Assembly (NCBI GenBank): GCA_040905465.1
Contig: JBBDRK010000049.1
Location: 160,001-224,000, forward strand
Direction of reading: 5' to 3'
Length of the DNA: 64,000 nucleotides
Source of the DNA: Trueperaceae bacterium
GTDB lineage: Bacteria; Deinococcota; Deinococci; Deinococcales; Trueperaceae
The position numbers were made by a program, and so were the translations under genes. Positions 5,437-21,908 of the stretch are shown piece by piece (positions within the stretch are counted from its first letter, which is position 1; every line of letters starts with the position of its first letter). The notes beneath the pieces were generated by a model, which was not told the origin of the DNA, searched no databases, and saw nothing but the letters and a program-made list of their open reading frames with translations.

Positions 5437-6972
5437 ATGATCGAAATGGTCGACAGGCTGCGCCGGAGCCGCACCCGTTTTCGTCGTCGGTTACTGCTGG
5501 CCGGCGCGATCAGGAGCGTGACGGCTGCCTTGGCGCTGTTCGTCGTCCTCGAGGGTTCCCGGCGGCTCGCCCGCGCCTTGGGCACCGCGCCGGAGGTAGA
5601 AACCGGCCACCTCCTGTGGCTGGCGCTCGCCGCCCTGCTGGCCTTCCTCACCGTCGCTGCCGTCCAGGCGTGGCGGAATGTACCCACGCTGCTCGGCATT
5701 GCCCAACTCGCCGACGCGCGCTACGACCTGCTCGAACGCGTGACCACGGCGTTTGAAACGCTCCAACGCGGGGCCGAAACCCCGGTTCAGAAGGCGTTGC
5801 TCGACGACGCCGCTGCGCGCTCGCGGCAGATCGACCCGGCAGAGCTCGTACCGAACTCACTTCCCTGGCCAATCTGGCCTTCGGTGGCGCTGACGGGCGT
5901 CGCCATGGTCCTGATCCTCCTCCCACAGCCCGCCGCACTCGCCCCCGACAGCCGCACGGCATCGACAGCGAATATGGAGGGCTCGACGCCGGAGGGAAGG
6001 ATCGAAGAAACCGGCGCCAAGGTGAGGCGCGTGGCGGAACTGGTTGGCCGAGACGCCGAGGCAAGCCGCGACCCCTACCTGCAGGCCGTTGCCAGGTCGT
6101 TCGATGACCTCGGCAGGCGAATAGAGGCAGGCGAGTTGGGACAAGCCGAAATCGACAATGAGGTCGGCCGCCTGTTACAGCACCTCGAGCGGGCACTGGG
6201 CGGAGACGACGCCGCTGCCTCGGCCGGACTGCTCGGCTACGGAGCTGAAAACCGCGGCGATGCGGGCCCCGGCGGCTCCCGAACCGACGCGGACGTTGCG
6301 CCGGAAGGGGCCGCCACAACGGACACCGAGCCGGCAGTCGATGAGGCCACCGGCCGGCAGGATCGGTCGAATGGTGAGGTCTCCAGCAGCACGGCCGGCG
6401 AGCAGGACACTGCTACCGGCCTCGACGAGCTACTGAACCGCCTCCAGGCGCGTCTGGAGGCCCGCGAGCCGGAGGACCGGCCGCCGCAGCCCCGGACTCA
6501 GTCGGCGGAAAACGATTCGGCCGGCGGCTTCTATACCGACATCGATCCAGACCTGGTTGCCGAGATCGAGGAGCGGCAGAACCGACTTACGCGGCAACGG
6601 GCCGAGAATCGAGCCGGTGGAGAACCGGTAGGGGCGGCAGAAGAGTCGAACGAAGGGCCGGGGGATCTGGCCGGGGAGGGAGCCCAACCTCTCGGTATTG
6701 GGGCGAACGGCGTGCCCGAGTCCGATAGTGAGCGGTTCGACCCTCTGCAACTGCCCGGGGGCCGGCAGGCCGATGGCCGCCGCATCCGGATAGAGATTCC
6801 ACCGGACGCCGAGTTCACGGAGGTGGACGCCCTAGCCGAACCGATGAGTGGTGGCTGGCGACGTAGCCGCGGGGGAACTTCCGCCGGAACGCTTCTCGGT
6901 ATGATGGACCGTGACGTCGTAAGCCGTTACTTCATGCCACAGGAAGAGAATCGAGACGGCGCTCGCCGCTAG
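5437..6972 (+). CDS. Membrane-anchored hypothetical protein of the MoxR cluster
   Basis: Three hydrophobic segments and a LLERVTTAFE motif, then a long acidic/coiled region ending VVSRYF, as in proteins that precede MoxR-DUF58-vWA sets. Confidence 0.65.
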   Translation: MIEMVDRLRRSRTRFRRRLLLAGAIRSVTAALALFVVLEGSRRLARALGTAPEVETGHLLWLALAALLAFLTVAAVQAWRNVPTLLGIAQLADARYDLLERVTTAFETLQRGAETPVQKALLDDAAARSRQIDPAELVPNSLPWPIWPSVALTGVAMVLILLPQPAALAPDSRTASTANMEGSTPEGRIEETGAKVRRVAELVGRDAEASRDPYLQAVARSFDDLGRRIEAGELGQAEIDNEVGRLLQHLERALGGDDAAASAGLLGYGAENRGDAGPGGSRTDADVAPEGAATTDTEPAVDEATGRQDRSNGEVSSSTAGEQDTATGLDELLNRLQARLEAREPEDRPPQPRTQSAENDSAGGFYTDIDPDLVAEIEERQNRLTRQRAENRAGGEPVGAAEESNEGPGDLAGEGAQPLGIGANGVPESDSERFDPLQLPGGRQADGRRIRIEIPPDAEFTEVDALAEPMSGGWRRSRGGTSAGTLLGMMDRDVVSRYFMPQEENRDGARR

Positions 6973-8048: not shown

Positions 8049-8923
8049 GCCTCCTTCCGCCGAGAGTGCTGCAGAAGCTCGCTCGCTCGCGCCTCCAGCC
8101 GATATGGGCGACCCCGCGGGCCGGCGTGGGCGAAAGACGCTCGAGGGCCAAGGGTTCCGGAATCGAGTTTGCGGACCACCGTGAATACCAGCCGGGGGAC
8201 GACATCAGGCACCTCGATCGCCACGCCTACTCGCGACTGGGACGGCACGTCATCAAGCAGTATTCGCTCTATCAGCAGCTTCAGGTAACCGTTTTGATCG
8301 ACAGCAGCGCCTCGATGGGGTTCGGGACACCGGCGAAACTCCGGCGGGCAGCCGAGCTCGCGGGCATCGTCGCGTACGCGGGACTGAGCGGCGGCGACCG
8401 AGTGCTGGTGGGGGCTTTCTCCGGCGGCAGCGTCAAGTGGCATCGACACCTGGAAGGTACCCGCCGAGCAGCTGCGCTCTTCCGTTGGCTGGAGCAGCTG
8501 CGACCGGAGGGCTCGTCGCGCGTCGCCGAGTCGGCTCGGGCCAGCGCCCGTCGCCTCGGCAGCTCCGGCCTGCTGGTGGTGATCAGCGACTGGCTGGACG
8601 ACGGATTGGCGGCGGCTCTCTCGGCGTGGCGGCGAGCCGGCCAGGAGCTGGTAGGGGTGAGGCTGCTGGCGCCTGAGGAGCTCGAACCCGAGCGCATGGG
8701 CGACGGCCCGGTCCGGCTGTTCGACGTCGAGTCCGGCCAGGAGGTAGAGGCGTCGCTGGACGCCGGCGGCTACGCGAGCTACCGGAAGGCGCTGGCCGAC
8801 TGGGAGCGACGGCTGCGCGACGCGCTCTTCGTGCAGGAGGGGCGGCTGTTCTCGGTTCGCAGCGACGATGATCTGGAACGCACCGTCCTGACCGAGTGGC
8901 GGGTGAAGCAGCTGATTTCATGA
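8045..8923 (+). CDS. DUF58 family (vWA-like) protein
   Basis: GSGIEFADHREYQPGDDIRHLD, DSSASM MIDAS motif, VISD; GTGA overlap with moxR. Confidence 0.9.
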
Positions 8924-11900
8924 GCATCGGCAACCCATGGTGGCTGCTCTTGCTGGGACTCGCCTTGCTGGTGGTCGTGCTTCACGCCCGGCGGCGCCGC
9001 GAGCTTCCGGTGTCGAGCATTCTCCTGTGGCGCCACCTCGCGAGCCATGGCTCGAGCCGGCCCCAGCGTCGGTTTCCGCCTATAACGCCGCCGCTGCTGC
9101 TCCAACTGCTGGCACTGATCCTCCTGATCTCGGCACTGGCGCAACCCTACTTGCGCACGACCGATAGTTCACCGGACCACCTGGTCGTCGTGATCGACGC
9201 CTCGGCCAGCATGCACGCAAGCGACGTATCGCCGTCCCGCCTAGGTGCCGCTCGCGCAGCTGGCCACGACCGACTTGCGGCGCTTCCGACGAGCGCACGC
9301 GGCACGGTGATCGAGGCCGGAGCGAACCCGGTTGCAACGTCAGCCAGGCTTGGTGCCGGAAACGCGGCGGCGCAACTGGAACGCTCCGCCGTGAGCTCTG
9401 GACCTATCGCCGGCGAGCGGGCGGGCGGGGCGGGCGAGGGGGGCGCGGGCCCGGCCGATTGGCACGCCGCGGCGAGGTTGGCGGCCGGCACGATACGACC
9501 TGGGGAGAGGACTCTGGTTCTGCTCCTCAGCGACCCTTCAGGCGTCGACGCAGCCGGTCAGGCGCTGCAGGCGGAAATTCCCGACGTCGAGATCGTGACG
9601 CGCGAGTTCGCCGGCAGCAGGGTCCGGAACGTCGGCTTTGCCGACGTCCGGCCTGAGCCGCTTGACCTCGACGGCGGGCACTGGAGTGTGACCGGAGAGG
9701 TGGTCAGCGCCGGCGCCGCTGGCGAGACGACCGAAATGCGAGTGCTGTTCGAGCCGGAAGGGAGCGAGGGGGCACTCGCCTGGGACACGTTGGAGCTCGA
9801 GCCGGTGGACGGTGAGGCGCTGGAGTTCGAGTTGGAGCTAGAGCTTCCCGGGCCGGGATCACTGGAGCTTCGACTGCCCGACGACGATCTGAACGTCGAC
9901 AATCGGGCTCGGTTCATTCTGCGGGAAGGGCGCGTGAGCGCCCGGGTGCTACACGTGGGCCCCGAGAATCCCGAACTTCAGCGAGCGCTACAGGCGATCG
10001 ACGCCGTAGAGCTGTTCCGCGCCGAGTCGCTGCCGGCCGACAACGCCGAGTACGACCTCGTCATCGTCGACCGGACCGAGGTGGATCGCCGGCCGGATAC
10101 CAACGTCTTGTGGATCGCCGCCTCGCGCCACCGCGCCAGACCCAACGCGATGTTGTCGGAGCCGGACCCGAGCGGCTGGCGAAGCGATCATCCGCTTGCC
10201 GCCTCGATGGACTGGAGCTCGCTCACCGTGTCGGCCGCTCGCGATGTAGGTCTTCTACAGGGAGCAACCGTGCTGCTCGAGGCACGGGGGGCGCCGCTGA
10301 TCCAGGTCCGCACCGTCGACGAGCACACCGAGGTCGTCCTGTCTTTCGCATTGCGGGACAGCAACTGGCCTTCTCAGCTCGGCTTCCCGTTGTTCGTATC
10401 CAACCTGGTTCGAACGGCGCAACCGGCGCTGGGCCGGGCGGTCCTCTCCCTCGACGCCTTCCACCCCAGGGAAAGCATTCTTGCCGGCGGGACCGGCACA
10501 CGCGAGGCGGCCGCGGCTTCCGGTCCGCTTGACTGGCCACTGTGGCGTTGGCCCGTTTGGCGTTGGCTCGTGCTGGCCACGTTCGTCGTCGTTGTCCTCG
10601 AAGCGCTGATCGCGGGCCTGGCAAGCGAACGATACCTCCGGCGACAAGCGCTCGGCGCCGGCAATCCACTGGCCGGCCGCCACCGCACCACAGTTGCCTT
10701 ACAGGCCGGAGCTGCTGCGCTCCTGCTCCTGGCGCTCCTGTCCGTCTCCGTGCCGTTTCCCGGCCGACAGGCGCAAACCGTCCTGATCGTCGAGGATGAG
10801 CGGTTCCTGACCGGCGAGGCAACTGAAGGCCGCGAGGAGACGGGCCGCTCTTCGCTGGACTTCCTGGATGACGACGCGGCGACCGGTGCCGGGATCGTAC
10901 GCCTGGGAGCGCCGAGCACCATAGTCAGGGACGCCGGAAAGAGGGGTAGGCCTACCTCAGCGCCAGCCGGAGTTGCGGGAGCCGATCTCGAATCGGCGAT
11001 CGACCTGGCAGCTGGAATGCTTGCCTCGGGAATGCTTGCTGCTGGAACGACTGCTTCGGAAACGCAGGCCACTGGAACGCAAGCCGCCGGTGCGCGGGGA
11101 GGCGCCGAGCAGGGCAGGATCGTAATAGTCGGCGGAGCTCTGTCGACTGTCGGCGAAGCGTCGAGGAGTGTTCCAGGGCTCGTCGCCAGCGGCATCACCG
11201 TCGACGTCTTACCACCGGGAGGGATTCCAGCGGGCGAGTCGCTGGTCGAGGAGGTCGTTGCCCCCGAGCGACTTCACCCTTCACAGACCTTCCGGCTCGA
11301 GGGAATCGTCTTCAGCGAGAGTGCCCAACAGGCTTCGGTGACCCTGTACCGCGACGGCGAGGTGCTGGTGGAACGGGAAGTACACCTGGAGGCCGGCCGC
11401 AACCGGGTCGAGACGGAGGCCGACGAGGAGGAAGCAGGCACCTACCTGTACGAAGTAGAAGTCGACTCGCAAGGCGACGTCTTCAGCGAAAACAATCGGG
11501 CCGGGCAGATGGTGCGCGTCCTGGCACCGCCGTCGGTCTTGTTGGTGTCGCCCCAGGCCGAGTGGGCGGAACTGTTTGCCGACGCCCTCCTGATTCAGGG
11601 CGTCGAGGCCGAGATCAACGAACCGCTTGCCGCGCCGTGGAATATCGAGGGCTGGCTCGAGCACGACGTGGTGGTCCTGATGAACGTCCCGGCGCTGGAC
11701 CTGCATTCGACCCAGCAGGAGTTGCTGGCGACTTGGGTAACCGAGCACGGCGGCGGCCTGCTGATCCTGGGTGGCGAGAACAGCTTCGGACCCGGCGGTT
11801 ACTATCAGACGCCTCTGGAGGACCTCTCTCCCCTTTCAAGCCAGGTGCCGCGCGAGGCGCCGGCGGTCGCGATGCTCTTCGTGCTCGACCGTTCCGGCAG

Positions 11901-13275
11901 CATGCAGCAACAGGTGGGTGAATCGACACGGCTCCAGATCGCCAAGGAGGCCACGATCGAAGCAATCGACCTCCTCGGTGAGGAGAGCCTCACCGGCGTA
12001 GTGGTGTTCGATTCCGAGTCGACGGTCCTGGCCCCGATCCAGCCGGTCGAAAACAGGGACGCGATTGCGGCGGAGCTCGAGCTGCTCGGTCCTAGCGGCG
12101 GCACGGCGATCCAACCGGCTCTGGAGCAGGCCCTGGAGCAGATGCGCGGCGTCGATGCCTCGACGCGCCACGTGGTGCTGATGACCGACGGCCTGTCCCA
12201 ACAAGGGCAGTTCACGGCGGTCATGGAGGGCTTCGAAGCGGCGGAGACGACGGTCAGCAGCGTGGCGATCGGCAGCGGCGCGGACACCGCCCTGCTGCAG
12301 CAGATTGCCCGGGCCGGCGGCGGAACGTTCCACAGCACCACCGATTTCAGGGCTCTTCCCAGCATCCTCGCCCAGGAAGCGCTGCTGCTCTCGGGGACTC
12401 CGATCGAGGAGACCAGCTTCCAGCCGCAGTGGGCCGACCGGGGGGTAGAGTTCCTGGCGGCACTGCCGGAAGACTTGCCGCCGCTCCACGGTTACGTCCT
12501 GACGACCCCCAAGGGCGGGGCCGACGTTCACCTGTTGGCGCCCGACGACGACCCGGTCCTCGCTTCGTGGCGGCACGGCCTTGGCCGGGTGGTCGCGTTC
12601 ACATCTCACGGTGCAGGCTCCTGGAGTCGCGACTGGTTGTCGATGACGGAGTTCCCGCTCCTGTGGGCCCAGGCGGTACGCTGGACCCTTCCCCAGGTTG
12701 CCGGACCCGGCCTCACGCCGCGAGTGAGTTGGCGAGGCGACGAGGCGCAACTGCTCGTCGATGCAATCGACGCTCAGGGTCGACCGCTCTCCGAGCTGGC
12801 TGTCGAGGCGGAGATCGAGGCGCTGGAGGACTCGCAGGGCGATCGGCGGCTCGTGCTGCAAGAAACCGACCGGGGAAGGTATGAGGGCACTGTTGAACTG
12901 ACGAGCGAGGCGACCTACCGGCTGACGGCCCGGACGGTAAGCGACCCGTTCCAAACAGCCGAAGAGCTCGAGCCCGCCGTTTTGCTGTTTCGCGCCTCCT
13001 ACCCTGCCCGCTATGCATTCAGCCGCCAAGACGCGAGCGAACTCCTGGCCATCAGCGAGTCGACTGGTGGCCAGGTCCTCTTCTCGACCGAGGACCTGCC
13101 GGCAACCTCGTGGCGCTGGCGCTGGCAACCCCTGGAGGCGTGGCCGTTTTGGCTGCTCCTCGCGCTGACGCTGTTCATGCTCTCGCTGTTCTCCCGCTAC
13201 GCTCCCCGCTTCCGTCGCAAACCGCTTGGGAAGCGTTCCGCGGGCTCGCGGAGGTCTGCGGCCGAGGCGGGTTGA
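8920..13275 (+). CDS. Large membrane protein: BatA-like N-terminus, vWA domains and a glutamine amidotransferase-like domain
   Basis: ATGA overlap at 8920; NPWWLLL..LPVSSILLW..LLLQLLAL..LAQP (BatA); MIDAS DASASM and DRSGSM; TDG; GGGLLILGGENSFGPGGY; internal and C-terminal TM helices. Confidence 0.85.
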   Translation: MSIGNPWWLLLLGLALLVVVLHARRRRELPVSSILLWRHLASHGSSRPQRRFPPITPPLLLQLLALILLISALAQPYLRTTDSSPDHLVVVIDASASMHASDVSPSRLGAARAAGHDRLAALPTSARGTVIEAGANPVATSARLGAGNAAAQLERSAVSSGPIAGERAGGAGEGGAGPADWHAAARLAAGTIRPGERTLVLLLSDPSGVDAAGQALQAEIPDVEIVTREFAGSRVRNVGFADVRPEPLDLDGGHWSVTGEVVSAGAAGETTEMRVLFEPEGSEGALAWDTLELEPVDGEALEFELELELPGPGSLELRLPDDDLNVDNRARFILREGRVSARVLHVGPENPELQRALQAIDAVELFRAESLPADNAEYDLVIVDRTEVDRRPDTNVLWIAASRHRARPNAMLSEPDPSGWRSDHPLAASMDWSSLTVSAARDVGLLQGATVLLEARGAPLIQVRTVDEHTEVVLSFALRDSNWPSQLGFPLFVSNLVRTAQPALGRAVLSLDAFHPRESILAGGTGTREAAAASGPLDWPLWRWPVWRWLVLATFVVVVLEALIAGLASERYLRRQALGAGNPLAGRHRTTVALQAGAAALLLLALLSVSVPFPGRQAQTVLIVEDERFLTGEATEGREETGRSSLDFLDDDAATGAGIVRLGAPSTIVRDAGKRGRPTSAPAGVAGADLESAIDLAAGMLASGMLAAGTTASETQATGTQAAGARGGAEQGRIVIVGGALSTVGEASRSVPGLVASGITVDVLPPGGIPAGESLVEEVVAPERLHPSQTFRLEGIVFSESAQQASVTLYRDGEVLVEREVHLEAGRNRVETEADEEEAGTYLYEVEVDSQGDVFSENNRAGQMVRVLAPPSVLLVSPQAEWAELFADALLIQGVEAEINEPLAAPWNIEGWLEHDVVVLMNVPALDLHSTQQELLATWVTEHGGGLLILGGENSFGPGGYYQTPLEDLSPLSSQVPREAPAVAMLFVLDRSGSMQQQVGESTRLQIAKEATIEAIDLLGEESLTGVVVFDSESTVLAPIQPVENRDAIAAELELLGPSGGTAIQPALEQALEQMRGVDASTRHVVLMTDGLSQQGQFTAVMEGFEAAETTVSSVAIGSGADTALLQQIARAGGGTFHSTTDFRALPSILAQEALLLSGTPIEETSFQPQWADRGVEFLAALPEDLPPLHGYVLTTPKGGADVHLLAPDDDPVLASWRHGLGRVVAFTSHGAGSWSRDWLSMTEFPLLWAQAVRWTLPQVAGPGLTPRVSWRGDEAQLLVDAIDAQGRPLSELAVEAEIEALEDSQGDRRLVLQETDRGRYEGTVELTSEATYRLTARTVSDPFQTAEELEPAVLLFRASYPARYAFSRQDASELLAISESTGGQVLFSTEDLPATSWRWRWQPLEAWPFWLLLALTLFMLSLFSRYAPRFRRKPLGKRSAGSRRSAAEAG
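11011..11085 (+). repeat. Five degenerate 15-bp tandem repeats inside the vWA gene
   Basis: GCTGGAATGCTTGCC / TCGGGAATGCTTGCT / GCTGGAACGACTGCT / TCGGAAACGCAGGCC / ACTGGAACGCAAGCC. Confidence 0.75.
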
Positions 13276-13500: not shown

Positions 13501-14256
13501 ATGCGATTCGTTTTGTCGTCATCTGCCTTCCTGGTCCTGTCCCTGGCGCTCGTCGGCGCCCAGGAGGCCGGCGAAGCAACGGTGCAGGTTGCCGAAAGCG
13601 AGAGTTGGGGCAGCCACCTGACCAACGCCGAGGGTGCCAGCCTCTACCTCTACCTGGAAGACGAAGGCCTCGAGGGCGAGAGTGCCTGCGCCGAGAGTTG
13701 CACCAGGAACTGGCCGCCGCTGACGGTGGACGGCGAGCCCGTCGCCGGTGAAGGCGTGGACGCTGAACTGCTCGGCACCCTCACCCGTGACGACGGCTCG
13801 AGCCAGGTGACCTACGGCGGCTGGCCCCTCTACACTTACGCCCGTGATACCGAGCCGGGCCACACCAAGGGCCAGGGCCTGGGCCGGGTGTTCTTCCTGG
13901 TGTCGCCGGCGGGCGAGCAGGTAACCGAGGAGCTGGTCCAGGAAGCTCCCGAGCTGGATGAGGAAGTGATGGCCCAGTTGATGACCGAGGGCGAGCGCGC
14001 GTTCCGCAACAACTGCGTCGTATGCCATGGAGCTCAGGGCCAGGGCGCCATAGGGCCTCGCCTGGCAGGCAACTCGAACGTGGGCGGTACCGCGTTCCTG
14101 GTCCAGAGGATCATCATCGGCTTCGAGGCACACGGGATGCCACCGTTCGGACACCTCTCGGACGAGCAGATCGCAGCCATATCCACTTTCGTCCGCAACT
14201 CGTGGGGAAATGAGTTCGGTGCCGTCACTTCTGAGGAGGTGAGTAACCTGCGATAA
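13501..14256 (+). CDS. Second COG4315-cytochrome c fusion
   Basis: Signal peptide; CAESCTRNWPP, QVTYGGWPLYTYARD; CVVCH heme site; GMPPF; VRNSWGN; AGGAG RBS. Confidence 0.88.
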   Translation: MRFVLSSSAFLVLSLALVGAQEAGEATVQVAESESWGSHLTNAEGASLYLYLEDEGLEGESACAESCTRNWPPLTVDGEPVAGEGVDAELLGTLTRDDGSSQVTYGGWPLYTYARDTEPGHTKGQGLGRVFFLVSPAGEQVTEELVQEAPELDEEVMAQLMTEGERAFRNNCVVCHGAQGQGAIGPRLAGNSNVGGTAFLVQRIIIGFEAHGMPPFGHLSDEQIAAISTFVRNSWGNEFGAVTSEEVSNLR

Positions 14257-14346
14257 GCAACGGACGAACCGGTGTATCCCAAGTCCTCTCCCCCTACGAA
14301 CTTATTCCGCAACGTCTCCTACTCGAAAGGTTTGGTGGCTGTTCAC

Positions 14347-16155
14347 ATGACACACCCAACAACATTCGGAGCCGGCTGGCTCAACAGGCTCGCCCTCGCG
14401 TTCACGGCGGCGGTACTACTGACCGTCGGCGCCGGAGCGGCACTGGCGAACGAAGAGGTGCTCAACCTCCAGGACGATCACTCGATGTGGGTGATGCCCA
14501 ACCAGAACTACGCCGGCTGGAACTACAGCGAACTGGACCGCATCAACCGCCACAACGTTGACAACCTGCGCGTCGCCTGGGCGTTCCAGACGGGCGTGCT
14601 GGACTCGCACGAAGCGCAGCCGTTGGTCATAGGCTCTACGATGTACGTCCTGACTCCCAAGCCGAACACGCTATATGCCCTCGATCTCACACGGCAAGGC
14701 TTCATCAAGTGGTCGTTCGCTCCCGAGATGGATACGGAGCGAGCCGGCTCACTGGCCTGCTGTGGCGCCCAGACCCGCGGCATGATGTACGCCGAAGGCA
14801 AGATTCTCTTCAACACACTCGACGGACAGCTTTTCGCCGTAAACGCCAACGACGGCTCGGTGGCATGGGACACGCAGGTTGCCGATCTCGATCTCGGTGA
14901 GACGACCACGACCAACCCGTTGGTCGTCGGCGACAACGTCATCATCGGCAACGAAGGCGGCGAGCGCGGGGTTCGCGGCTGGGTGGCGGCATACGACCTC
15001 AACAGTGGCGAGCAGCAGTGGAAGTTCTACAGCACCGGACCCAACGAAGATATGGGGATCGGTGAGCGCTTCAACCCGTTCTACGCCGACGACCAGGTCG
15101 AGGAGCCGGGCGTACAGAGCTGGTACGAGGATTCCTGGGAGCACGGTGGCGGCACCAACTGGGGCTACTGGACCTACGACCAGGACACCAACCTCTTCTT
15201 CTATGGCACCAGCAACTGCGCCCCCTGGAACCCGGACTACCGCCGCGACCCGGCCACCGCGCCCGGATTCGACGAGTACGGCAACAAGTACTGCGCCTCG
15301 CTTCTCGCCCGCGACGCAACCAGCGGCGAGCTGGTGTGGGCGTACTCGGTCACGCCGCAGGATCAGTGGGACTTCGACGAGCCCGGCCAGAACTTCCTGG
15401 TGGATCTCGAGATGGACGGTGAGATGCGCAAGACGCTCGTCAAGCCCGCCCGCAACGGTTTCTTCTACGTGTTCGACCGCGAGACCGGCGAGATCCTCAA
15501 CGAGCCGTTCACCTACACCAGCGTCAACTGGGCCTCTAGCATCGACCTCGACACCGGCCGGCCCGTCTTCAATGAGGAAACGATCGCCTACACGGACGTC
15601 GAGATCCCGATCTGCCCCTTCATCGCCGGCAACAACTGGTTCAACGACGCCTACTCGCCGCGCACCGGCTTGGTTTACTTCGCTGCTGAGAACCGCTGCT
15701 CTTCACTCACGCCGATCGAGGGCGAATTCACCGCCGGCGAGAACTACATCCTCATGAAATTCGGCCAGAGTCACGCGGGACCAGGCGGATACCTCGGCGA
15801 ACTTCAGGCATGGGATCCGGTAACCGGCGAGAAGGCCTGGGGTATCAAGACCCAGACCTCGCGCAACGCCTTCCCGGTGCTCGCCACCGCCGGCGACCTG
15901 ATCTTCCAGGGGACCGACAAGGGTGAACTGAGGGCCGTTGACGCCCGCAACGGACAGGTTCTGTGGTCGTTCCGTACCGGCAGCAACTTCCGCAACTCGC
16001 CGATCAGCTATGTCGGGCCCGACGGCAAGCAGTACCTCGCGGTCATCTCCAGCCAGGCGCCACGAGATCCGGAGATCGGTGAAGACACCGAGCCGGAGGC
16101 GGAGGGTCGCTACCGACGCGCAGGCTCGACGCTCTACGTGTTCAGTCTGCCTTGA
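14347..16155 (+). CDS. XoxF-like PQQ-dependent alcohol/methanol dehydrogenase, predicted lanthanide-binding (start uncertain, 14272-14347)
   Basis: VAWAFQTGVLDSHEAQPLVIGSTMYV; vicinal CC at 14758-14763; GGERGVRG (Glu ligand); GGGTNWG; YGTSN (Asn ligand); WDFD at 15367-15378; RNGF; GKQYLAV. Confidence 0.9.
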   Translation: MTHPTTFGAGWLNRLALAFTAAVLLTVGAGAALANEEVLNLQDDHSMWVMPNQNYAGWNYSELDRINRHNVDNLRVAWAFQTGVLDSHEAQPLVIGSTMYVLTPKPNTLYALDLTRQGFIKWSFAPEMDTERAGSLACCGAQTRGMMYAEGKILFNTLDGQLFAVNANDGSVAWDTQVADLDLGETTTTNPLVVGDNVIIGNEGGERGVRGWVAAYDLNSGEQQWKFYSTGPNEDMGIGERFNPFYADDQVEEPGVQSWYEDSWEHGGGTNWGYWTYDQDTNLFFYGTSNCAPWNPDYRRDPATAPGFDEYGNKYCASLLARDATSGELVWAYSVTPQDQWDFDEPGQNFLVDLEMDGEMRKTLVKPARNGFFYVFDRETGEILNEPFTYTSVNWASSIDLDTGRPVFNEETIAYTDVEIPICPFIAGNNWFNDAYSPRTGLVYFAAENRCSSLTPIEGEFTAGENYILMKFGQSHAGPGGYLGELQAWDPVTGEKAWGIKTQTSRNAFPVLATAGDLIFQGTDKGELRAVDARNGQVLWSFRTGSNFRNSPISYVGPDGKQYLAVISSQAPRDPEIGEDTEPEAEGRYRRAGSTLYVFSLP

Positions 16156-16200
16156 TCGAACTTTTGCCGTTTCCCGCTGAATAGGAAAGCCAGCCAAAGG

Positions 16201-16239
16201 CGGGGGGAGAGCGGTCATTCGCTCTCCCCCCGTTTTCTT
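16201..16239 (+). terminator. Rho-independent terminator/attenuating hairpin after PQQ dehydrogenase 2
   Basis: CGGGGGGAGAGCG / CGCTCTCCCCCCG 13-bp stem followed by TTTTCTT. Confidence 0.85.
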
Positions 16240-16340
16240 CTCACCGCCACTATGGACAGGACCGAACGGAACCGGTCCGGCGGCCGCCCAGCTGATGACG
16301 TCGCCGCCAGTGCGGGCTACGACGGAAAGGAACGTCAATC

Positions 16341-18398
16341 ATGACCAGGGGGATGAGGCGAGGCCTCGCTCGAGCCCTACCCACAATCGCCTGCGCGCTG
16401 GCGCTGAGCTTGTCTTTCGCGGGCCTTGCAGCCGACGGCGACTGGGAGATGCGCGTCTGCGCTGACCCCGACGGCATGCCGTTCTCGAATCGAGACCTTG
16501 AAGGTTACGAGAACCGTATCGCCGCCGTCCTGGCCGAGGAGCTCGGCGCCACGCTCACATATGACTGGTTCACCCAGGGGCCCGACATGGTCAACTTTCA
16601 CCTGCGGGAGGGCCAGTGCGACCTGATCATCGGTGTTCCCGACGGATACGAGGACCTGCTCACAACCGTCGCCTATTACCGCAGCCCCTACGTCTTCCTC
16701 TACCCCACCGACTCGGAGCACAAGGTGACGTCGCTGGACGACCCGGCTTTGGCGGAGATGCGCATCGGCGTGCAGGCGGTAGGAATACCGCCTCATCAGG
16801 GCCTGATCAACCGCGGACTGGGCCACACCGTGGTCCGCCGCTTCGCCGGGCCCGGCCTCACCAACGCGGCCGCCTCCTTCGAACAGGTAGTCGACGCCCT
16901 TGCCAACGAAGAGATCGACGTGGGTATCGCCTGGGGACCGGTGGCGGGCTACGTGGCCGAGCGCTCCGACGTCGACCTGGAAATCACGCCGGTTACGCCC
17001 GAGTTCGAGCCCCCCTTCCTGACAATGGTGTTCGCCATGGCGATCGGAATGCGACCCGGCGATGAGTCTTTTCGCGATCGCCTGGACGTGGCCCTGGTGA
17101 ATCGCTGGCAGGAGATTCAGGCGATCCTCGGTGACTACGGCGTTCCGACCGCTCCCCTTCCGACGCCTACTCTCCCCGCCGATGAACCAAGCGGAACCGT
17201 CGTTCGAGTAGGGGTCGTTATCCCCGGAACAACGGGGCACAGCAGGATTCGCGCCTCGATCAACGACCTGGTGGGCGACGCTGCCCGCATGGGCGCCCTG
17301 ATGGCTGAGAGCGACATAGCCAACCTCGAAGCCGTCGAAAACACTTTGAAGGTGCTGCCCGCCAGTTCACCGAGCGCCGAGGCCGCCTTCCGGGCTGCCG
17401 AGAGACTGGTGGCAACCGAGGAGGTGACTGCGATTGTCGGGGGCCTGGGCGATGGTCAGGCCGAGAGGCTCTCCGAAGCGTTGGCGGCTGGGGAGGTCCT
17501 GTTCTTTAATATCGGCTCCCCGTCGATGGCGTTGCGCGAGCTCTGCAATCCCGCCACCTTTCACATCGAGCCTAGCGCGGCAATGTACCTCGATGCCCTG
17601 GCCGAGTGGTATTCGGAACGAGGGATGGAAAGCTGGTTCGTAGTCCACGAGGACAACCCCGCGGGAGAGGCGCTGCGTGAGCGTGCCGTTCGGGCGATAG
17701 AGAGTCACGGCGGCGGAGAGCTGGCCGGAACCGCCGCAACGACCATCGAACAACCGGTCTACTCGGCCGAGATCAGCGAACTCGAAGTCTCCGGTGCGGA
17801 CGTGGTGCTGTTGCTTCTGGGTCCGGCCGATCAGATAGCCTTCGTATCGCAACAACAGTCGTTCGCCAGCGGCGCTATCGTCGCGATGTACCCGCATCCG
17901 ATCACCCAGACGCGCGATTTTATCGCGGCAACCAGCGACGCGGCCAGGGACGGAGGGGCCGACCAGCGAATGATGTCTTGGGAGACCACTCTCGAGGAAG
18001 GCGCGATGGGTGTGCTCAACGAGCGCTATACCTCGCGCTGGGGTCAGCCGATGGACACGCCTGCCTGGAGCAGCTACCAGGCTATCCGCATCGTCGATCA
18101 GGCCGTTCGCGACTCCGATAGCGACGATTCGGCAGCACTCGTCGCGTACCTCGAATCTCCGGATACGTCGTTCGAGGCGAAAGGGCTCGAGCTGTCGTTC
18201 CGGCCATGGGACCACCAGCTGGGTCAACCGCTGTACGTGGTCGACGTGAATCCCGACGCTCAGTGGGGAACTAACCTCTCGCAGATGGTGGCGTTCGCCG
18301 AATTGGCGGGAACGGTGCCGAGCGAGCTGGGGGATGGGGCACGGGAACGTCTGCTGGCGTTGGGCGACGACGAGGAAGCGTTGGCTTGCCGACGATGA
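16341..18398 (+). CDS. Second MoxJ/XoxJ-LivK double binding-protein fusion
   Basis: WEMRVCADPDGMPFSNRDLEGYENRIA, CDLIIGV, AIGMRPGD, CNPATFHIEPSAAMYLDAL, FRPWDHQL; colinear with 3324..5387. Confidence 0.88.
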   Translation: MTRGMRRGLARALPTIACALALSLSFAGLAADGDWEMRVCADPDGMPFSNRDLEGYENRIAAVLAEELGATLTYDWFTQGPDMVNFHLREGQCDLIIGVPDGYEDLLTTVAYYRSPYVFLYPTDSEHKVTSLDDPALAEMRIGVQAVGIPPHQGLINRGLGHTVVRRFAGPGLTNAAASFEQVVDALANEEIDVGIAWGPVAGYVAERSDVDLEITPVTPEFEPPFLTMVFAMAIGMRPGDESFRDRLDVALVNRWQEIQAILGDYGVPTAPLPTPTLPADEPSGTVVRVGVVIPGTTGHSRIRASINDLVGDAARMGALMAESDIANLEAVENTLKVLPASSPSAEAAFRAAERLVATEEVTAIVGGLGDGQAERLSEALAAGEVLFFNIGSPSMALRELCNPATFHIEPSAAMYLDALAEWYSERGMESWFVVHEDNPAGEALRERAVRAIESHGGGELAGTAATTIEQPVYSAEISELEVSGADVVLLLLGPADQIAFVSQQQSFASGAIVAMYPHPITQTRDFIAATSDAARDGGADQRMMSWETTLEEGAMGVLNERYTSRWGQPMDTPAWSSYQAIRIVDQAVRDSDSDDSAALVAYLESPDTSFEAKGLELSFRPWDHQLGQPLYVVDVNPDAQWGTNLSQMVAFAELAGTVPSELGDGARERLLALGDDEEALACRR

Positions 18399-18537
18399 TG
18401 GCCCGCGTCGCGCGGATCGCTGAGGGCCACCGCACTTTTCCCGGGGTCACGGTTACATGAGGTGATCGGGCTTACCGTGAATCGATGACCGGTCCGCCGG
18501 GCCGGTGATTCGATCGACGCGAACAGGGGGAGCAGAA

Positions 18538-19599
18538 ATGGCGTATTGGAGAATTTTACTGGCCGTAATCACGCTTCTGTGGGCGGCGCCGGCATTGGCG
18601 CAAGGTAGCGCAGACGGCGGCGACGACAACGGAAGCGCAGCGGGCGAAAGCGCCGCTGGGCAAAGCGAGGACGGTGCGGCCGCCGGTGACGATGCGGTTG
18701 GCGACGATGCGGTTGGCGACGACGCTGCTGGCGATGACGCGGCCGGCGACGAAGGTGCTGTCGGTGACGACGGGGCCGAGGGCGACGATGGCGCAGCCGG
18801 CGATGACGCCGCAGTCGGTGACGATGGGGCCGAGGGTGAGGACGCCGAGGCCGCCGCCGAGGAGCCGCAGGTGCAGCGCTGGACGTTCGAAGCGTTCGAC
18901 GCCGATGGCGACAGCAGCTTGACGGTAGGGGAGTTCGGGACCGGTCTGTTCGAACTGGTGGTAGGCGACGGTGAGGGTCTCGGCCCGGACCAGTACGAGC
19001 ACGCGGCACAGGCGTTCGGGGTCGAAGCTCAGGAGGTCGACTTCGAAACCGCCGACGTGAACCAAGACGGCATAGTGACCGATGACCAGGAGTTCATTCC
19101 TGCCGTGGCGACCCGCGTGTTCGAGAACTGGGACGCGGACGGCGACAATGCTCTGAGCGCCGAAGAGTATCGCACCAACATGTTCTCTACCTTCGATGCC
19201 GACGCTGACGGCACCGTGAGCGCCGACGAGTTCGAGCCGTTTGCCGCCTGGTTCGACACCGGCTTCGAAGAGGTCGCCGGCGGGGGCGCTGGCGGCTTTA
19301 CCGAGGACTTCTTCATGGAGGACGGCTTCGGCGCGGGCGACGGCGCGGGCGACGGCGCCGATGAAGGCGCTGCCGACGACGTAGAGACGCCTGCGACTGA
19401 AGACGACGATGCGGATACAGAAGACGCAGACATGGAAGACACCGACACAGAAGACGCGGAAACAGACGACGCGGACACCGAGGGCGCCGGTGAAGATGGT
19501 GCCGGCACGGACGACACGGATGACGACACGAATGACGGCACAGAGGACGGCGACGTAGGAGGCGGCGGCGAAGCCGACGATGCCGGCAGCGACTACTGA
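18538..19599 (+). CDS. Secreted, highly acidic multi-EF-hand protein
   Basis: Signal peptide ending PALA; EF loops DADGDSSLTVGE, DVNQDGIVTDDQE, DADGDNALSAEE, DADADGTVSADE; Asp/Gly/Ala repeat tracts on both sides. Confidence 0.85.
   Translation: MAYWRILLAVITLLWAAPALAQGSADGGDDNGSAAGESAAGQSEDGAAAGDDAVGDDAVGDDAAGDDAAGDEGAVGDDGAEGDDGAAGDDAAVGDDGAEGEDAEAAAEEPQVQRWTFEAFDADGDSSLTVGEFGTGLFELVVGDGEGLGPDQYEHAAQAFGVEAQEVDFETADVNQDGIVTDDQEFIPAVATRVFENWDADGDNALSAEEYRTNMFSTFDADADGTVSADEFEPFAAWFDTGFEEVAGGGAGGFTEDFFMEDGFGAGDGAGDGADEGAADDVETPATEDDDADTEDADMEDTDTEDAETDDADTEGAGEDGAGTDDTDDDTNDGTEDGDVGGGGEADDAGSDY
18685..18849 (+). repeat. 15/18-bp coding tandem repeats (GDDAV, GDDAA, GDDGAE)
   Basis: GGTGACGATGCGGTT GGCGACGATGCGGTT GGCGACGACGCTGCT GGCGATGACGCGGCC, then 18-bp variants. 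Confidence 0.85.
19408..19482 (+). repeat. Five 15-bp coding repeats (DADTE-like)
   Basis: DADTE DADME DTDTE DAETD DADTE in frame. Confidence 0.8.
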
Positions 19600-19677
19600 G
19601 ACGACTACCGCTCGATCGGTGAGCTCGCCGAGCTCATAACGGGTGCAACCGGCAGAAACCAATGGAAGCTCGATCGT

Positions 19678-19720
19678 AACGGGGGTCAGGCGCCGCAGAA
19701 CGGGGGCGCCTGACCCCGTT
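19678..19720. terminator. Hairpin between convergent genes
   Basis: AACGGGGGTCAGGCGCC ... GGCGCCTGACCCCGTT inverted repeat. Confidence 0.75.
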
Positions 19721-19800
19721 CACTCACTGAGGCCGCCCGTTCTCAGTGCCGTGCCCCGACCATTGCCAGTCCGCGCGCGGAAACCGCGCTAGCGGACGGC

Positions 19801-20463
19801 TCAGTTCACCCTGAACACCGAAAACGTGCGCGAGACCTCATCGAAGATCCCGTAACTGCTCCCGGGCGTTCGGTCGCGGGGGAGGCTCACCGAACCCGGA
19901 TTGAGAAACGCCTGGACGCCCGGTTCGAGGCGCAACGTTCCTTGCCCTTCGCGAAACGGCCGCACGCCCCACGCACCATCCGGCTCCCGCAGGAACGCTC
20001 CCGGCACATGTGTATGACCAACGAAGTAGACGTCCCGCTTCATGTGACTGGCGTTCGACCTCGCCACCGGCACGCTAATGAGGTACTCGAAACGGGTGCG
20101 CAGCGCACCGTGGACAGCAGCCCAGTCATCGTCCAGATACTCGGGCTGCAGCCGGTCGAGGAACTCCAAATCGTCGGGCCCGAGCTCGCGCAGATGGGAG
20201 GCCAGGATGTCGTTGATCCGGTCGGCGGCGTTCGGCGCACGACCCTGGCGCAGGATGTCGAGCATCGCTTCGTGATTGCCGCTGAGCGCGGCCCGAAAGT
20301 CCAGCGTTCGCAACCTGGCTACGGCAGCCGCCGGCTCGCTGCCGTAGCCGATGGCGTCTCCCAGGAAAACGACCTGGTCCCAGCCACGCTCGGCGGCATC
20401 GGCCAAGACCGTGTCGAGACTCCGTGCATCGGCGTGGACGTCGGAGATGACCAGAAGGCGCAC
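19801..20463 (-). CDS. Calcineurin-like metallophosphoesterase
   Basis: SDVHAD, LGDAIGYG, GNHE, VHG, GHTH, NPGSV motifs; GTG start inferred at 20463. Confidence 0.9.
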   Translation of the reverse strand: MRLLVISDVHADARSLDTVLADAAERGWDQVVFLGDAIGYGSEPAAAVARLRTLDFRAALSGNHEAMLDILRQGRAPNAADRINDILASHLRELGPDDLEFLDRLQPEYLDDDWAAVHGALRTRFEYLISVPVARSNASHMKRDVYFVGHTHVPGAFLREPDGAWGVRPFREGQGTLRLEPGVQAFLNPGSVSLPRDRTPGSSYGIFDEVSRTFSVFRVN

Positions 20464-20516
20464 GCCTTCATCTTGGCACGAGTGGGCGAATCGGGGACCG
20501 AGCCGGCCACCTGGGC

Positions 20517-21740
20517 TCAGCGGTCGCCATCGCCGTCGCCACCGTCGCCGCCACCGTTGCCATCGCCGTCGCCGGCAACAGACGATGGCCATTCATCCCT
20601 GAGTTGGGACGACGAGATGTCCTCGTGAAACCTATCCTCGGGAAGCGCCTGGAACAGCTCGCGGGCAGCCGCCGGCACGTCCAGGTGCTCCAGCGTGAGA
20701 AAACGCCCGTCGCGGCGCCGGCCCGCCACGAGGAACCTGGCACCCAGAGTGCGCAACTCCTCCAGAGCGCCTATGCGGCTCTCTTCCGAGCCGTAGAACC
20801 GGCGCTCGAGCAGTCGGACCGCCGTATCGACCCCGACGACGAACGTATGGCCCGGAAACAATCGGGCCTTCTCGTTGAACAGAGGCGAGCGGGTGAGCAG
20901 CAGCGAGCGATTGCCGAGAAACTGGGCGGCGCGTCGTCGCGCCTCCGCCAGCCCGATCTCCTCCTTGTCGGCATTCGCCAGCGGCAGTTCGAACACCACC
21001 TCCGAGCCCAGGTAGGCGCCGGCCGCCTCGGCCAGGCGAATGTGGCCGTGGTGCACGGGATTGAAGGCGCCGCTCAGGATTGCCGCGCCCTCGGGAACCC
21101 GTTCCGCCACCTCACCTGCCGGCGTGACCTGAAACCAGCTCCTTCGTCCTGCTTCGAACTCGGCGGCTATCCCGGTCGCCACCAATCTCTGAAGCAACTG
21201 CTCGCCGGCGACCAGTTCCGGTAACGGTGCGCCCAGTACACCCTTGGCGTCGGCGACCGCTCTCATCACCAGCGAGCTCACCACCCGTTCCTCGCCGGCC
21301 CGGTCGCGTTCGCCCTTGGCGAGCCGCAGGCTGTAGTGGTGGATCCCGAACGTATCGTGGACGGCCGCTTCACAGCGATGCTCGCCGCGCTTGGTTCGGT
21401 CGGTGGCGATGGCGGCGCTCAGTCCCAGTCCGAACGTCGGCAGGTTGGCGCGGGCCAACGCGCTCGCGCGCCGTTGTGCCTGCTCGGCCAGCGCGGCAGC
21501 AACCTCCGAAGATGCGAAGCGCTTCGGCGTGAAGCCGACGGCTTCGATCAATGAAGCCGTCGTGTAGTGATCTACCGCTTCCAGCACGGTACGAGACGAA
21601 CCGGCAACGCTATGCAGCCAGTACAACGCCTCGGCTCCGGCCCCGGTGAACTTCATGACCATGAGGGGGGCGCCCGCGTGGATGTGCTCGAGCAGGGCGA
21701 GCGGCGGACCGTGGTCTGGCGAGCGGCCAGGTTCGTTCAT
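20517..21740 (-). CDS. CinA-like domain fused to a HIGH-family (NadD-like) nucleotidyltransferase
   Basis: TGAG..GSSRTVLEA..ATDRTKRGEHR N-domain; SGAFNPVHHGH, VGVDT and ISSSQLR C-domain; TACGCT 6 nt before the ATG at 21740. Confidence 0.75.
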   Translation of the reverse strand: MNEPGRSPDHGPPLALLEHIHAGAPLMVMKFTGAGAEALYWLHSVAGSSRTVLEAVDHYTTASLIEAVGFTPKRFASSEVAAALAEQAQRRASALARANLPTFGLGLSAAIATDRTKRGEHRCEAAVHDTFGIHHYSLRLAKGERDRAGEERVVSSLVMRAVADAKGVLGAPLPELVAGEQLLQRLVATGIAAEFEAGRRSWFQVTPAGEVAERVPEGAAILSGAFNPVHHGHIRLAEAAGAYLGSEVVFELPLANADKEEIGLAEARRRAAQFLGNRSLLLTRSPLFNEKARLFPGHTFVVGVDTAVRLLERRFYGSEESRIGALEELRTLGARFLVAGRRRDGRFLTLEHLDVPAAARELFQALPEDRFHEDISSSQLRDEWPSSVAGDGDGNGGGDGGDGDGDR

Positions 21741-21908
21741 TCCGGTAGCGTAGCCCTTCCGAGCCGGGCAGTGCCATGCGGTGACGGACTCGGGCTGCGC
21801 CACCGAGAACAAAGCTGTAAACTCCTGTCACTCAAGCGCCAGACACGCCTCTACTCTGTGCCGCGTCCGACTACTCTTGCAAAGGACGCAGCTGGCGGGT
21901 GAGTCGGT

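Follow-up and report, generated by a model that had tools for sequence, protein, structure and literature searches.

A secreted four-EF-hand protein with poly-acidic tails at the edge of a Trueperaceae quinoprotein island: a putative periplasmic holder of hard cations

To our knowledge, natural lanthanide-binding proteins are few, namely, lanmodulin (LanM), landiscernin (LanD) and lanpepsy, and all known ones come from Proteobacteria. LanM, a three-helix bundle with a disordered apo form, binds trivalent lanthanides (Ln3+) with picomolar affinity and ~10^8-fold selectivity over Ca2+, and is encoded in a lut-type cluster together with a TonB-dependent receptor. The affinity of EF hands for trivalent lanthanides is at least equal to that for Ca2+. 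Lanthanide-binding proteins are sought for rare-earth separation. LanM is described as having four EF loops spaced by 12–13 residues, with Pro at loop position 2 (Pro2) in at least one of them (PMC11845868), and the loop motif of Mex-LanM is given as D1-P2-D3-x-D5-x3-D9-x2-E12 (PMC11576760). Here, we analyze a gene for a secreted EF-hand protein (18538..19599, + strand) in a 64,000-nt stretch of Trueperaceae DNA (JBBDRK010000049.1, positions 160,001 to 224,000), hereafter the window, to which all positions refer unless another contig or locus is named. The window belongs to contig C49 of genome G000, a 3.53-Mb assembly of 81 contigs that is 95% complete. A previous sequence-only reading had proposed the product, which carries four EF hands between long poly-acidic tails, as a possible LanM analogue serving neighboring dehydrogenases dependent on pyrroloquinoline quinone (PQQ). 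The comparisons presented below indicate a new, very narrowly distributed EF-hand family, which by its loop hallmarks is not a lanmodulin; with a probability of roughly 45%, the protein is a periplasmic holder or buffer of hard cations functionally tied to the adjacent quinoprotein island.

The open reading frame (ORF) 18505/18538..19599 (+) is a real gene with a 353-aa product (P0001). Its coding sequence (18538..19599, stop codon included) is supported by homologues that are 64–73% identical and by Pfam EF-hand matches. A Shine-Dalgarno sequence, GGGGGAG (18526..18532, +), is readable 5 nt before the ATG at 18538, and comparably strong ones are found 5–8 nt upstream in orthologues with located starts (four of the five examined). 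A 368-codon ORF on the opposite strand of the EF gene was also considered and found no support, all homologues lying in the + frame.

The protein begins with a Sec-type signal peptide, MAYWRILLAVITLLWAAPALA (18538..18600, +), recognizable by its sequence and by its conservation in the family. MAYWRILLAVITLLWAAPALA followed by Q is kept in homologues, and the hydrophobic h-region as well as APALAQ are conserved family-wide; cleavage probably occurs after ALA. The signal peptide seen in the sequence-only reading is thus real, and so are both of the repeat tails that it described. The N-terminal tail (18601..18867, +) is rich in Gly, Asp and Ala, consists of GDDA-type repeats and is predicted to be disordered from its composition and tandem repeats. 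The C-terminal tail (19318..19596, +) is rich in Asp, Thr and Glu, consists of DTEDA-type repeats and is likewise predicted to be disordered, given its composition and a predicted local distance difference test score (pLDDT) below 50 where modeled. Both tails are encoded by tandem repeats, namely, imperfect 15/30/54-nt repeats in the DNA of the N tail and imperfect 15/30-nt repeats in that of the C tail. Residues 23–110 of the N tail include 31 acidic and no basic (Lys/Arg) residues, and residues 251–353, which cover the C tail, include 44 acidic and again no basic ones. Overall, the mature protein has 109 acidic versus 3 basic residues among 331.

Between the tails lies a conserved core of ~150 aa (aa 111–260; 18868..19317, +), which is matched as a whole in the family. 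It contains four EF loops, the starting positions of which agree exactly with those proposed earlier. EF loop 1, DADGDSSLTVGE (18898..18933, +, from aa 121), is a canonical 12-residue loop by sequence and family alignment, as is EF loop 3, DADGDNALSAEE (19132..19167, +, from aa 199), which has lost its canonical form in 4 of the 19 family members, each of them without tails. EF loop 2, DVNQDGIVTDDQE (19054..19092, +, from aa 173), has 13 residues, as it does in 17 of the 19 members; its D1, D5 and final E-F are invariant in alignments of 19 and 23 sequences. EF loop 4, DADADGTVSADE (19195..19230, +, from aa 220), is again a canonical 12-residue loop and falls within the best Pfam stretch (aa 214–233). 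Of the two further degenerate loop-like segments noted earlier, one can be retained: GDGEGLGPDQYE (aa 143–154; 18964..18999, +) lacks the ligand pattern in the alignment, and a beta-bridge residue is present at aa 148 in the AlphaFold2 (AF2) model, suggesting that it pairs with EF1. The other matches to a loop-like regular expression (aa 289, 326, 328 and 337) lie in the low-complexity C tail and are not conserved. The core ends with a C-terminal cap, AGGGAGGFTEDFF (19276..19314, +), which is near-invariant in close homologues.

The protein belongs to the EF-hand superfamily (Pfam CL0220: PF00036, PF13202, PF13405, PF13499). The matches to Pfam EF-hand_1, EF-hand_5, EF-hand_6 and EF-hand_7 score 42.2, 42.2, 36.7 and 35.9 bits against cut-offs of 25.4, 25.9, 25 and 30, respectively (E = 4e-11 to 9e-9). 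Furthermore, the ligand positions of the EF loops are invariant or nearly so over 19–23 family sequences. The AF2 model of the core, built from the alignment of 19 sequences, is a compact domain with a mean pLDDT of 90.4 and a predicted template modeling (TM) score of 0.84, in which each of the four EF loops forms a helix-loop-helix with pLDDT >90. Because of the Pfam scores, the family-wide conservation of the loops and these confident helix-loop-helix predictions, the EF-hand identity is beyond chance. Single beta-bridge residues occur at loop position 8 of EF1–EF4 (aa 128, 180, 206 and 227). An extended construct (aa 100–275; pLDDT 87.7) has a bridge at aa 254–255 opposite EF4 positions 7–8 and a short helix at aa 256–260 over EDFFM (pLDDT ~80). 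The spacers EF1–EF2, EF2–EF3 and EF3–EF4 measure 40, 13 and 9 residues; the helix that leaves EF2 is also the one that enters EF3, and EF3 and EF4 share a helix in the same manner. We propose that the domain is built of three lobes with two strands each, in which EF1 pairs with the degenerate loop, EF2 with EF3 and the C-terminal cap with EF4; this pairing is read from DSSP bridge residues rather than from model coordinates. Judged from the model, the core is an EF-hand domain without a close solved counterpart.

Relatives of P0001 are scarce. A word-indexed search of 5.8 billion proteins returned four, three of which are 64–73% identical and share the signal peptide, the core and the tails. 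An HMMER search with the core against 1.84 billion representatives gave 1707 matches at E ≤0.001, mostly to single EF loops; in ~17 clusters, a single match spans the entire core, with E values from 1e-18 to 1e-61. In the more distant metagenomic proteins P0005, P0046 and P0066 (~30% identity), this core stands at the C-terminal end of a larger protein of 300–450 aa. In these three, the order of elements is EF1, degenerate loop, EF2, EF3, EF4 and then PYEGWFG, and their N-terminal parts look by eye like repeats rich in Tyr, Gly and Glu. The N tail is variable in length or missing altogether among homologues; since tail-less members exist, the core represents the conserved unit. NCBIfam has no family for this protein, and the protein atlas matched only generic EF-hand clusters, with scores ≤0.88. 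The family is found in 4 of the 41 relatives examined, in 4 of 128 Trueperaceae genomes (2 of 36 genera) and in 4 of 364 Deinococcota genomes (2 of 60 genera). With the single core as query, a pattern scan of 185,579 species genomes gave no match, a rescan of the same genomes with a closer alignment recovered only the contig of genome G014 (= L013), and a metagenome scan added one locus, L002. Collectively, the sequence data indicate a new EF-hand family of very narrow distribution and unusual domain layout.

The genomic context suggests a link to quinoproteins. Upstream of the EF gene lies an 18-kb quinoprotein island of two modules, each composed of a cytochrome c fusion, a PQQ alcohol dehydrogenase and a 685-aa binding protein in which a TIGR03871/TIGR03870 (MoxJ-type) domain is joined to a TIGR03863 (PQQ-system binding protein) domain. 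Module 2 (13501..18398, +; identified with Pfam and NCBIfam) comprises the cytochrome c fusion (13501–14256), a D-x-D PQQ dehydrogenase (14272–16155) and the binding protein (16341–18398). Since the binding-protein gene ends at 18398, the EF gene indeed directly follows module 2, as had been proposed. The module 2 dehydrogenase has a WDFD motif at aa 366, and WD[YFW]D is present in all three PQQ dehydrogenases of the genome (DEWDYD, DQWDFD and SWDWD). PMC11996626 takes the D-x-D motif as a diagnostic mark of enzymes that bind lanthanides.

The previous reading had suggested checking whether homologues co-occur with D-x-D PQQ dehydrogenases. Indeed, six of the seven EF loci adjoin a module of cytochrome c, PQQ dehydrogenase and binding protein. 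In the window, G014 and L002, the dehydrogenase, the binding protein and the EF gene are followed by a convergent phosphoesterase gene. In G001, the EF gene is divergent from a module-1-type cluster (cytochrome, dehydrogenase, binding protein, 511-aa-type protein, MoxR and DUF58), and the phosphoesterase follows. On contig C41 of G002, the phosphoesterase lies between two EF copies, of which the outer one is divergent from a module. Orientation and the type of the adjoining module thus vary between EF loci.

Taken together, these data are consistent with the following model. The EF protein would be exported by Sec and be soluble in the periplasm. Its core would be compact, with three 12-residue loops, one 13-residue loop, a degenerate fifth loop and a GGF-x-EDFF cap packed against loop 4, and would bind hard cations, Ca2+ and/or Ln3+, the metal bound in vivo possibly being either. 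Poly-Asp/Glu stretches can take up many hard cations, each at low affinity, and the disordered tails could add numerous weak sites in this way. The protein would hold cations, as a buffer or reservoir, near lanthanide-requiring enzymes and, in two Trueperaceae genera, serve the quinoprotein island as a lineage-specific accessory. That the metal is passed straight on to a dehydrogenase or to the fused MoxJ/PedA1-like binding protein is conceivable but finds no support; prediction of a complex between the EF core and the adjacent PQQ dehydrogenase gave a score of 0.00 against a mark of 0.32, which speaks neither for nor against binding.

Several observations weigh against a tie to the quinoproteins, or against a specialization for lanthanides, and the first of them concerns the loops. 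Pro2, the lanmodulin hallmark already reported to be missing, is absent from all four loops of the window protein and from all 76 loops of the 19 family members. Position 9 is mostly Ser/Thr; Asp/Glu occupy it in 11 of the 76 family loops and in none of the four loops of the window protein. With DxDxDG, Ser/Thr at position 9 and no Pro2, the loops look like those of Ca2+-binding proteins. Some LanM clades also lack Pro2 and have been likened to traditional Ca-binding EF-hand proteins with flat rare-earth selectivity (PMC13128445). Because of such clades, the missing Pro2 is not decisive alone, yet it points in the same direction as the remaining loop features, that is, towards the Ca type. The idea of a lanthanide scavenger receives no computed support for selectivity, and we consider real lanthanide selectivity of the EF protein unlikely.

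Such loops would suit a generic periplasmic Ca2+ buffer or sensor similar to EfhP and CaBP, which would have no tie to quinoproteins and would owe its position to inherited synteny. This explanation, which we hold to be somewhat improbable, gains from the matches of the family profile to calmodulin-like proteins (E ~1e-8 to 1e-9), which proceed loop by loop, and from the fact that secreted EF-hand Ca-binding proteins are known in bacteria, as described for EfhP and CaBP (PMC9132961, PMC13171946). Against it, the adjacency to PQQ modules has outlasted rearrangements in orientation and module type in two genera, and the EF gene, a phosphoesterase paralogue and the PQQ island are found as a set only in the EF-bearing genomes. 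Moreover, the PQQ enzymes of the organism are all of the lanthanide type, so that a hard-cation binder beside them is suggestive.

Structural comparison does not set the protein apart from Ca-binding proteins either. With VIA-align, among 48,161 chains, Mex-LanM (8FNS) ranked first (Z 7.2, root-mean-square deviation (rmsd) 3.8 Å over 94 of 105 residues) and Hans-LanM (8DQ2) ranked fourth (Z 6.0). Rows within 1 Z unit count as ties in this comparison, and Z <8 may mean merely a common arrangement; AtCBL2 (Z 6.7) and calmodulin complexes (6.4–6.6) are within that range, and CIB2, NCS-1 and S100 proteins also lie within ~1 Z unit of 8FNS, so the lead of LanM is a tie. In a Foldseek search against the PDB, calmodulin complexes were matched at E ~2e-4, but with TM scores of ~0.3 and rmsd of 7–8 Å; 8FNS stood at rank 37, yet had the best listed TM score (0.38/0.50). 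Lanmodulin may therefore be called the nominal nearest structural neighbor of the predicted core, not significantly nearer than ordinary Ca-binding proteins.

Being periplasmic, having four EF hands and matching LanM first in VIA-align, the protein might be thought of as a true member of the lanmodulin family, a notion that we regard as extremely improbable. LanM chains, although the PDB sequence set contains them, are absent from the best 60 of 66 PDB sequence matches (phmmer, E up to 1) and from the best 60 of 560 PDB matches of the family profile (E up to 10); calmodulin-type proteins are among these best matches. None of the four loops matches the D1-P2-D3-x-D5-x3-D9-x2-E12 motif. The uniform spacing of 12–13 residues is not observed either, two of the three spacers being short (13 and 9) and the third having 40 residues. 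Size and architecture also differ, with 353 aa, tails, a 40-residue insert containing a degenerate loop, and a C-terminal cap.

A different possibility is that the protein is an independently evolved lanthanide-selective carrier, that is, a Deinococcota analogue of lanmodulin, with tails that collect Ln3+, a tightly binding core and hand-on to the MoxJ/PedA1-like protein or to the apo-dehydrogenase. Its gene stands beside D-x-D dehydrogenases and binding proteins resembling those of lanthanide systems, the EF2–EF3–EF4 spacers of 13 and 9 residues are reminiscent of the spacing in LanM, and a loop-pattern scan of the 3339 likely ORFs of the genome found no other ORF with several EF loops; the leading VIA-align match and the existence of true LanM clades without Pro2 fit as well. 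However, the LanM motif is missing from every loop, the structural match is a tie, and the family is missing from most relatives with lanthanide-type PQQ enzymes, which makes such a carrier quite unlikely. Its evolutionary form, in which an ordinary EF-hand scaffold would have become a periplasmic lanthanide carrier within two Trueperaceae genera, serving D-x-D dehydrogenases together with fused binding proteins, is similarly doubtful.

The distribution of the gene limits how far the tie to quinoproteins can extend. PQQ alcohol dehydrogenases occur in 49 of the 128 Trueperaceae genomes and in 17 of the 36 genera, and the EF family is absent from 45 of these 49 genomes. Moreover, at none of 20 further PQQ loci, among them the remaining ones in the four EF-bearing genomes, is an EF relative or the phosphoesterase found nearby, and most of these loci keep the dehydrogenase and the binding protein, many of them also the cytochrome. 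Since the gene is absent from most PQQ loci and genomes, it is not a general partner of PQQ enzymes. All EF loci lie within one bacterial family and therefore are not independent. Finally, the third copy of G002, on contig C23, stands in a non-PQQ context, between genes for an alpha/beta hydrolase and citrate synthase, with adenylosuccinate synthetase just upstream and MgtC near. The absence from most PQQ-bearing Trueperaceae, the unrelated context of this paralogue and the confinement of the adjacent loci to one family also speak for a generic Ca2+ buffer. Overall, the EF gene belongs to a package that is specific to this lineage and borders the PQQ island, and is not part of the core module. 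Acid-rich ORFs near other Trueperaceae PQQ modules were considered as functional analogues and turned out to be antisense artefacts or unrelated (e.g. RpoD). At the G002 locus on contig C23 (L009, 4409–6424, −), a radical-SAM ORF is split by an intein with a LAGLIDADG domain.

The EF gene is equally constant beside the phosphoesterase paralogue, which it adjoins in all four genomes as well as in L002. The phosphoesterase family as such occurs in 119 of 128 Trueperaceae genomes (a count that includes one unpublished genome, G111), and the EF-linked enzyme is a separate paralogue, with 56–67% identity among its members and ≤47% to others, confined to the four EF genomes. None of 26 other phosphoesterase loci has an EF, nucleotidyltransferase-like or PQQ gene within 1.5 kb. 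One could accordingly suppose that the EF protein works with this metallophosphoesterase and the neighboring nucleotidyltransferase-like protein, for example in metal supply or buffering, and not with the quinoproteins; the two EF copies flanking the phosphoesterase in G002 would be in line with this. Yet neither of these ORFs has a signal peptide by eye, so that both products are probably cytoplasmic, unlike the exported EF protein, and the genes are convergent or divergent rather than co-oriented. A partnership of this kind thus appears very improbable.

The tails also turned out to be less specific than expected. Among the 3339 likely ORFs, the EF protein is the most net-negative, and it has the longest acidic low-complexity stretch of the genome (144 aa). 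The proteome medians (D+E fraction 0.122, net charge fraction 0.012) rule out a halophile-style acidic proteome as the cause. Acidic low-complexity stretches are found in 19 of the 3339 ORFs, namely, in 8 of 516 signal-peptide-like ORFs and in 11 of 2823 others, so that acidic tails are not peculiar to the EF protein; the next longest stretches belong to exported CarboxypepD_reg-like, cupredoxin, fasciclin, DUF4397 and SurA-like peptidyl-prolyl isomerase proteins. Furthermore, tails are absent in P0007, P0013, P0014, P0015, P0018 and the L002 protein. Acidic tails thus recur on envelope proteins of this organism, the EF protein being the extreme, and the proposal that they act as cation antennae is weakened, given that other secreted proteins have such tails and several family members have none. 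As to the other exported proteins, Asp/Glu/Thr-rich C-terminal tails are found on those encoded at C60:5128-11675, C74:59640-60929 and C46:72946-74049, and three acid-tailed exported proteins are clustered on contig C60.

Regarding expression, no sigma-70-like promoter was found in 18200–19950, and no Rfam family came near its gathering score around the EF gene. A single terminator-like match was obtained, within the coding sequence but on the minus strand, and it does not exceed what shuffled sequences yield. The EF gene is separated from the binding-protein gene by a 139-nt gap and probably has its own promoter, because it is divergently placed in G001 and G002. A motif shared by the upstream regions of the window gene and one G002 copy, CCNGGGTCACGGT, has one exact site in the window, upstream of the EF gene; it was dropped, as no site lies upstream of the other module genes.

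Downstream of the EF gene, the convergent metallophosphoesterase paralogue (19801..20592, −; Pfam Metallophos_2) probably has its true start near 20460. Next to it lies the gene for a 431-aa protein (20517..21812, −) with a nucleotidyltransferase-like C-terminal domain, assigned from library matches, and an unassigned N-terminal half. In the window, G001 and G002, this gene adjoins those of the EF protein and the phosphoesterase. The part of the window from 25 to 64 kb contains unrelated sugar and peptide genes. Between the two modules of the island, a 511-aa gene without a family match precedes a MoxR-DUF58-BatA/VWA set. The 511-aa ORF (5437–6972, +), which has no Pfam or NCBIfam match and lies between the module 1 binding protein and MoxR, has a counterpart in the same place in G001 (L011 5332–6837, −; 26% identity). 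Downstream of MoxR and DUF58, a 1459-aa ORF (8896–13275, +) combines a BatA N-terminal region, DUF7408, VWA and a GATase1-like domain; we take this ORF and its MoxR/DUF58 companions to be reminiscent of the mxaRSACKL metal-insertion genes. The PQQ alcohol dehydrogenases of the genome are encoded at 1498–3192 and 14272–16155 in the window and at G000:C74:23781-25295. The one at 1498–3192 lacks the vicinal Cys-Cys, scores 416 bits against a cut-off of 480 for TIGR03075 and has a strong second match to 'acido-empty-quinoprotein group A'. Although the 95%-complete assembly encodes three PQQ dehydrogenases, neither PqqC (TIGR02111) nor PqqE (TIGR02109) was matched in it, so that PQQ may be scavenged by this organism; the PqqC search is unvalidated, its control having matched in no control genome.

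In the titles, abstracts and text passages considered, no such EF-hand protein adjoining PQQ dehydrogenases is described for Deinococcota, and term look-ups in PMC11996626 gave no mention of Deinococc, Truepera or EF-hand. A secreted, confidently folding EF-hand domain of ~150 residues stands beside lanthanide-type dehydrogenases in a distant phylum. If the lanthanide-carrier reading were true, it would be a second independent EF-hand solution to lanthanide trafficking, achieved without the Pro2/Asp9 hallmarks; if the protein is a plain Ca2+ buffer, it is still a new EF-hand architecture and a marker of a lineage-specific quinoprotein island.

Compared with known systems, the protein shares with calmodulin-type proteins (PF00036, PF13202, PF13499) the canonical DxDxDG...E loops and the Pfam and profile matches, but differs in global arrangement, forming one compact domain with short spacers, and in being exported and carrying poly-acidic tails. 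EfhP of P. aeruginosa and CaBP of Caulobacter vibrioides are likewise extracytoplasmic bacterial EF-hand Ca-binding proteins; they differ in having two or three EF hands and in lacking both acidic tails and a PQQ context. Calsequestrin is a very acidic, high-capacity Ca2+ buffer built of thioredoxin-like domains and not of EF hands; the likeness, for which we claim no homology, lies in low-complexity Asp/Glu tails able to hold many cations weakly. A further parallel is lanmodulin (Mex-LanM, 8FNS/6MI5, and Hans-LanM, 8DQ2), which is also small, periplasmic and carboxylate-rich, with four EF hands. No TonB receptor or lut-type ABC genes are found among the Pfam-annotated ORFs of the window, and no specific sequence similarity to lanmodulin was detected in the 60 best PDB matches by sequence or by profile. 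The present protein also differs in its length (353 aa with tails), in the 40-residue insert between EF1 and EF2 with its degenerate fifth loop, in the C-terminal cap and in the long poly-acidic tails. The short inter-loop spacers of lanmodulin recur in part, as 13 and 9 residues. Finally, LanM is found in Alphaproteobacteria and the EF protein in Deinococcota, and in both cases the host organism has PQQ dehydrogenases of the lanthanide type.

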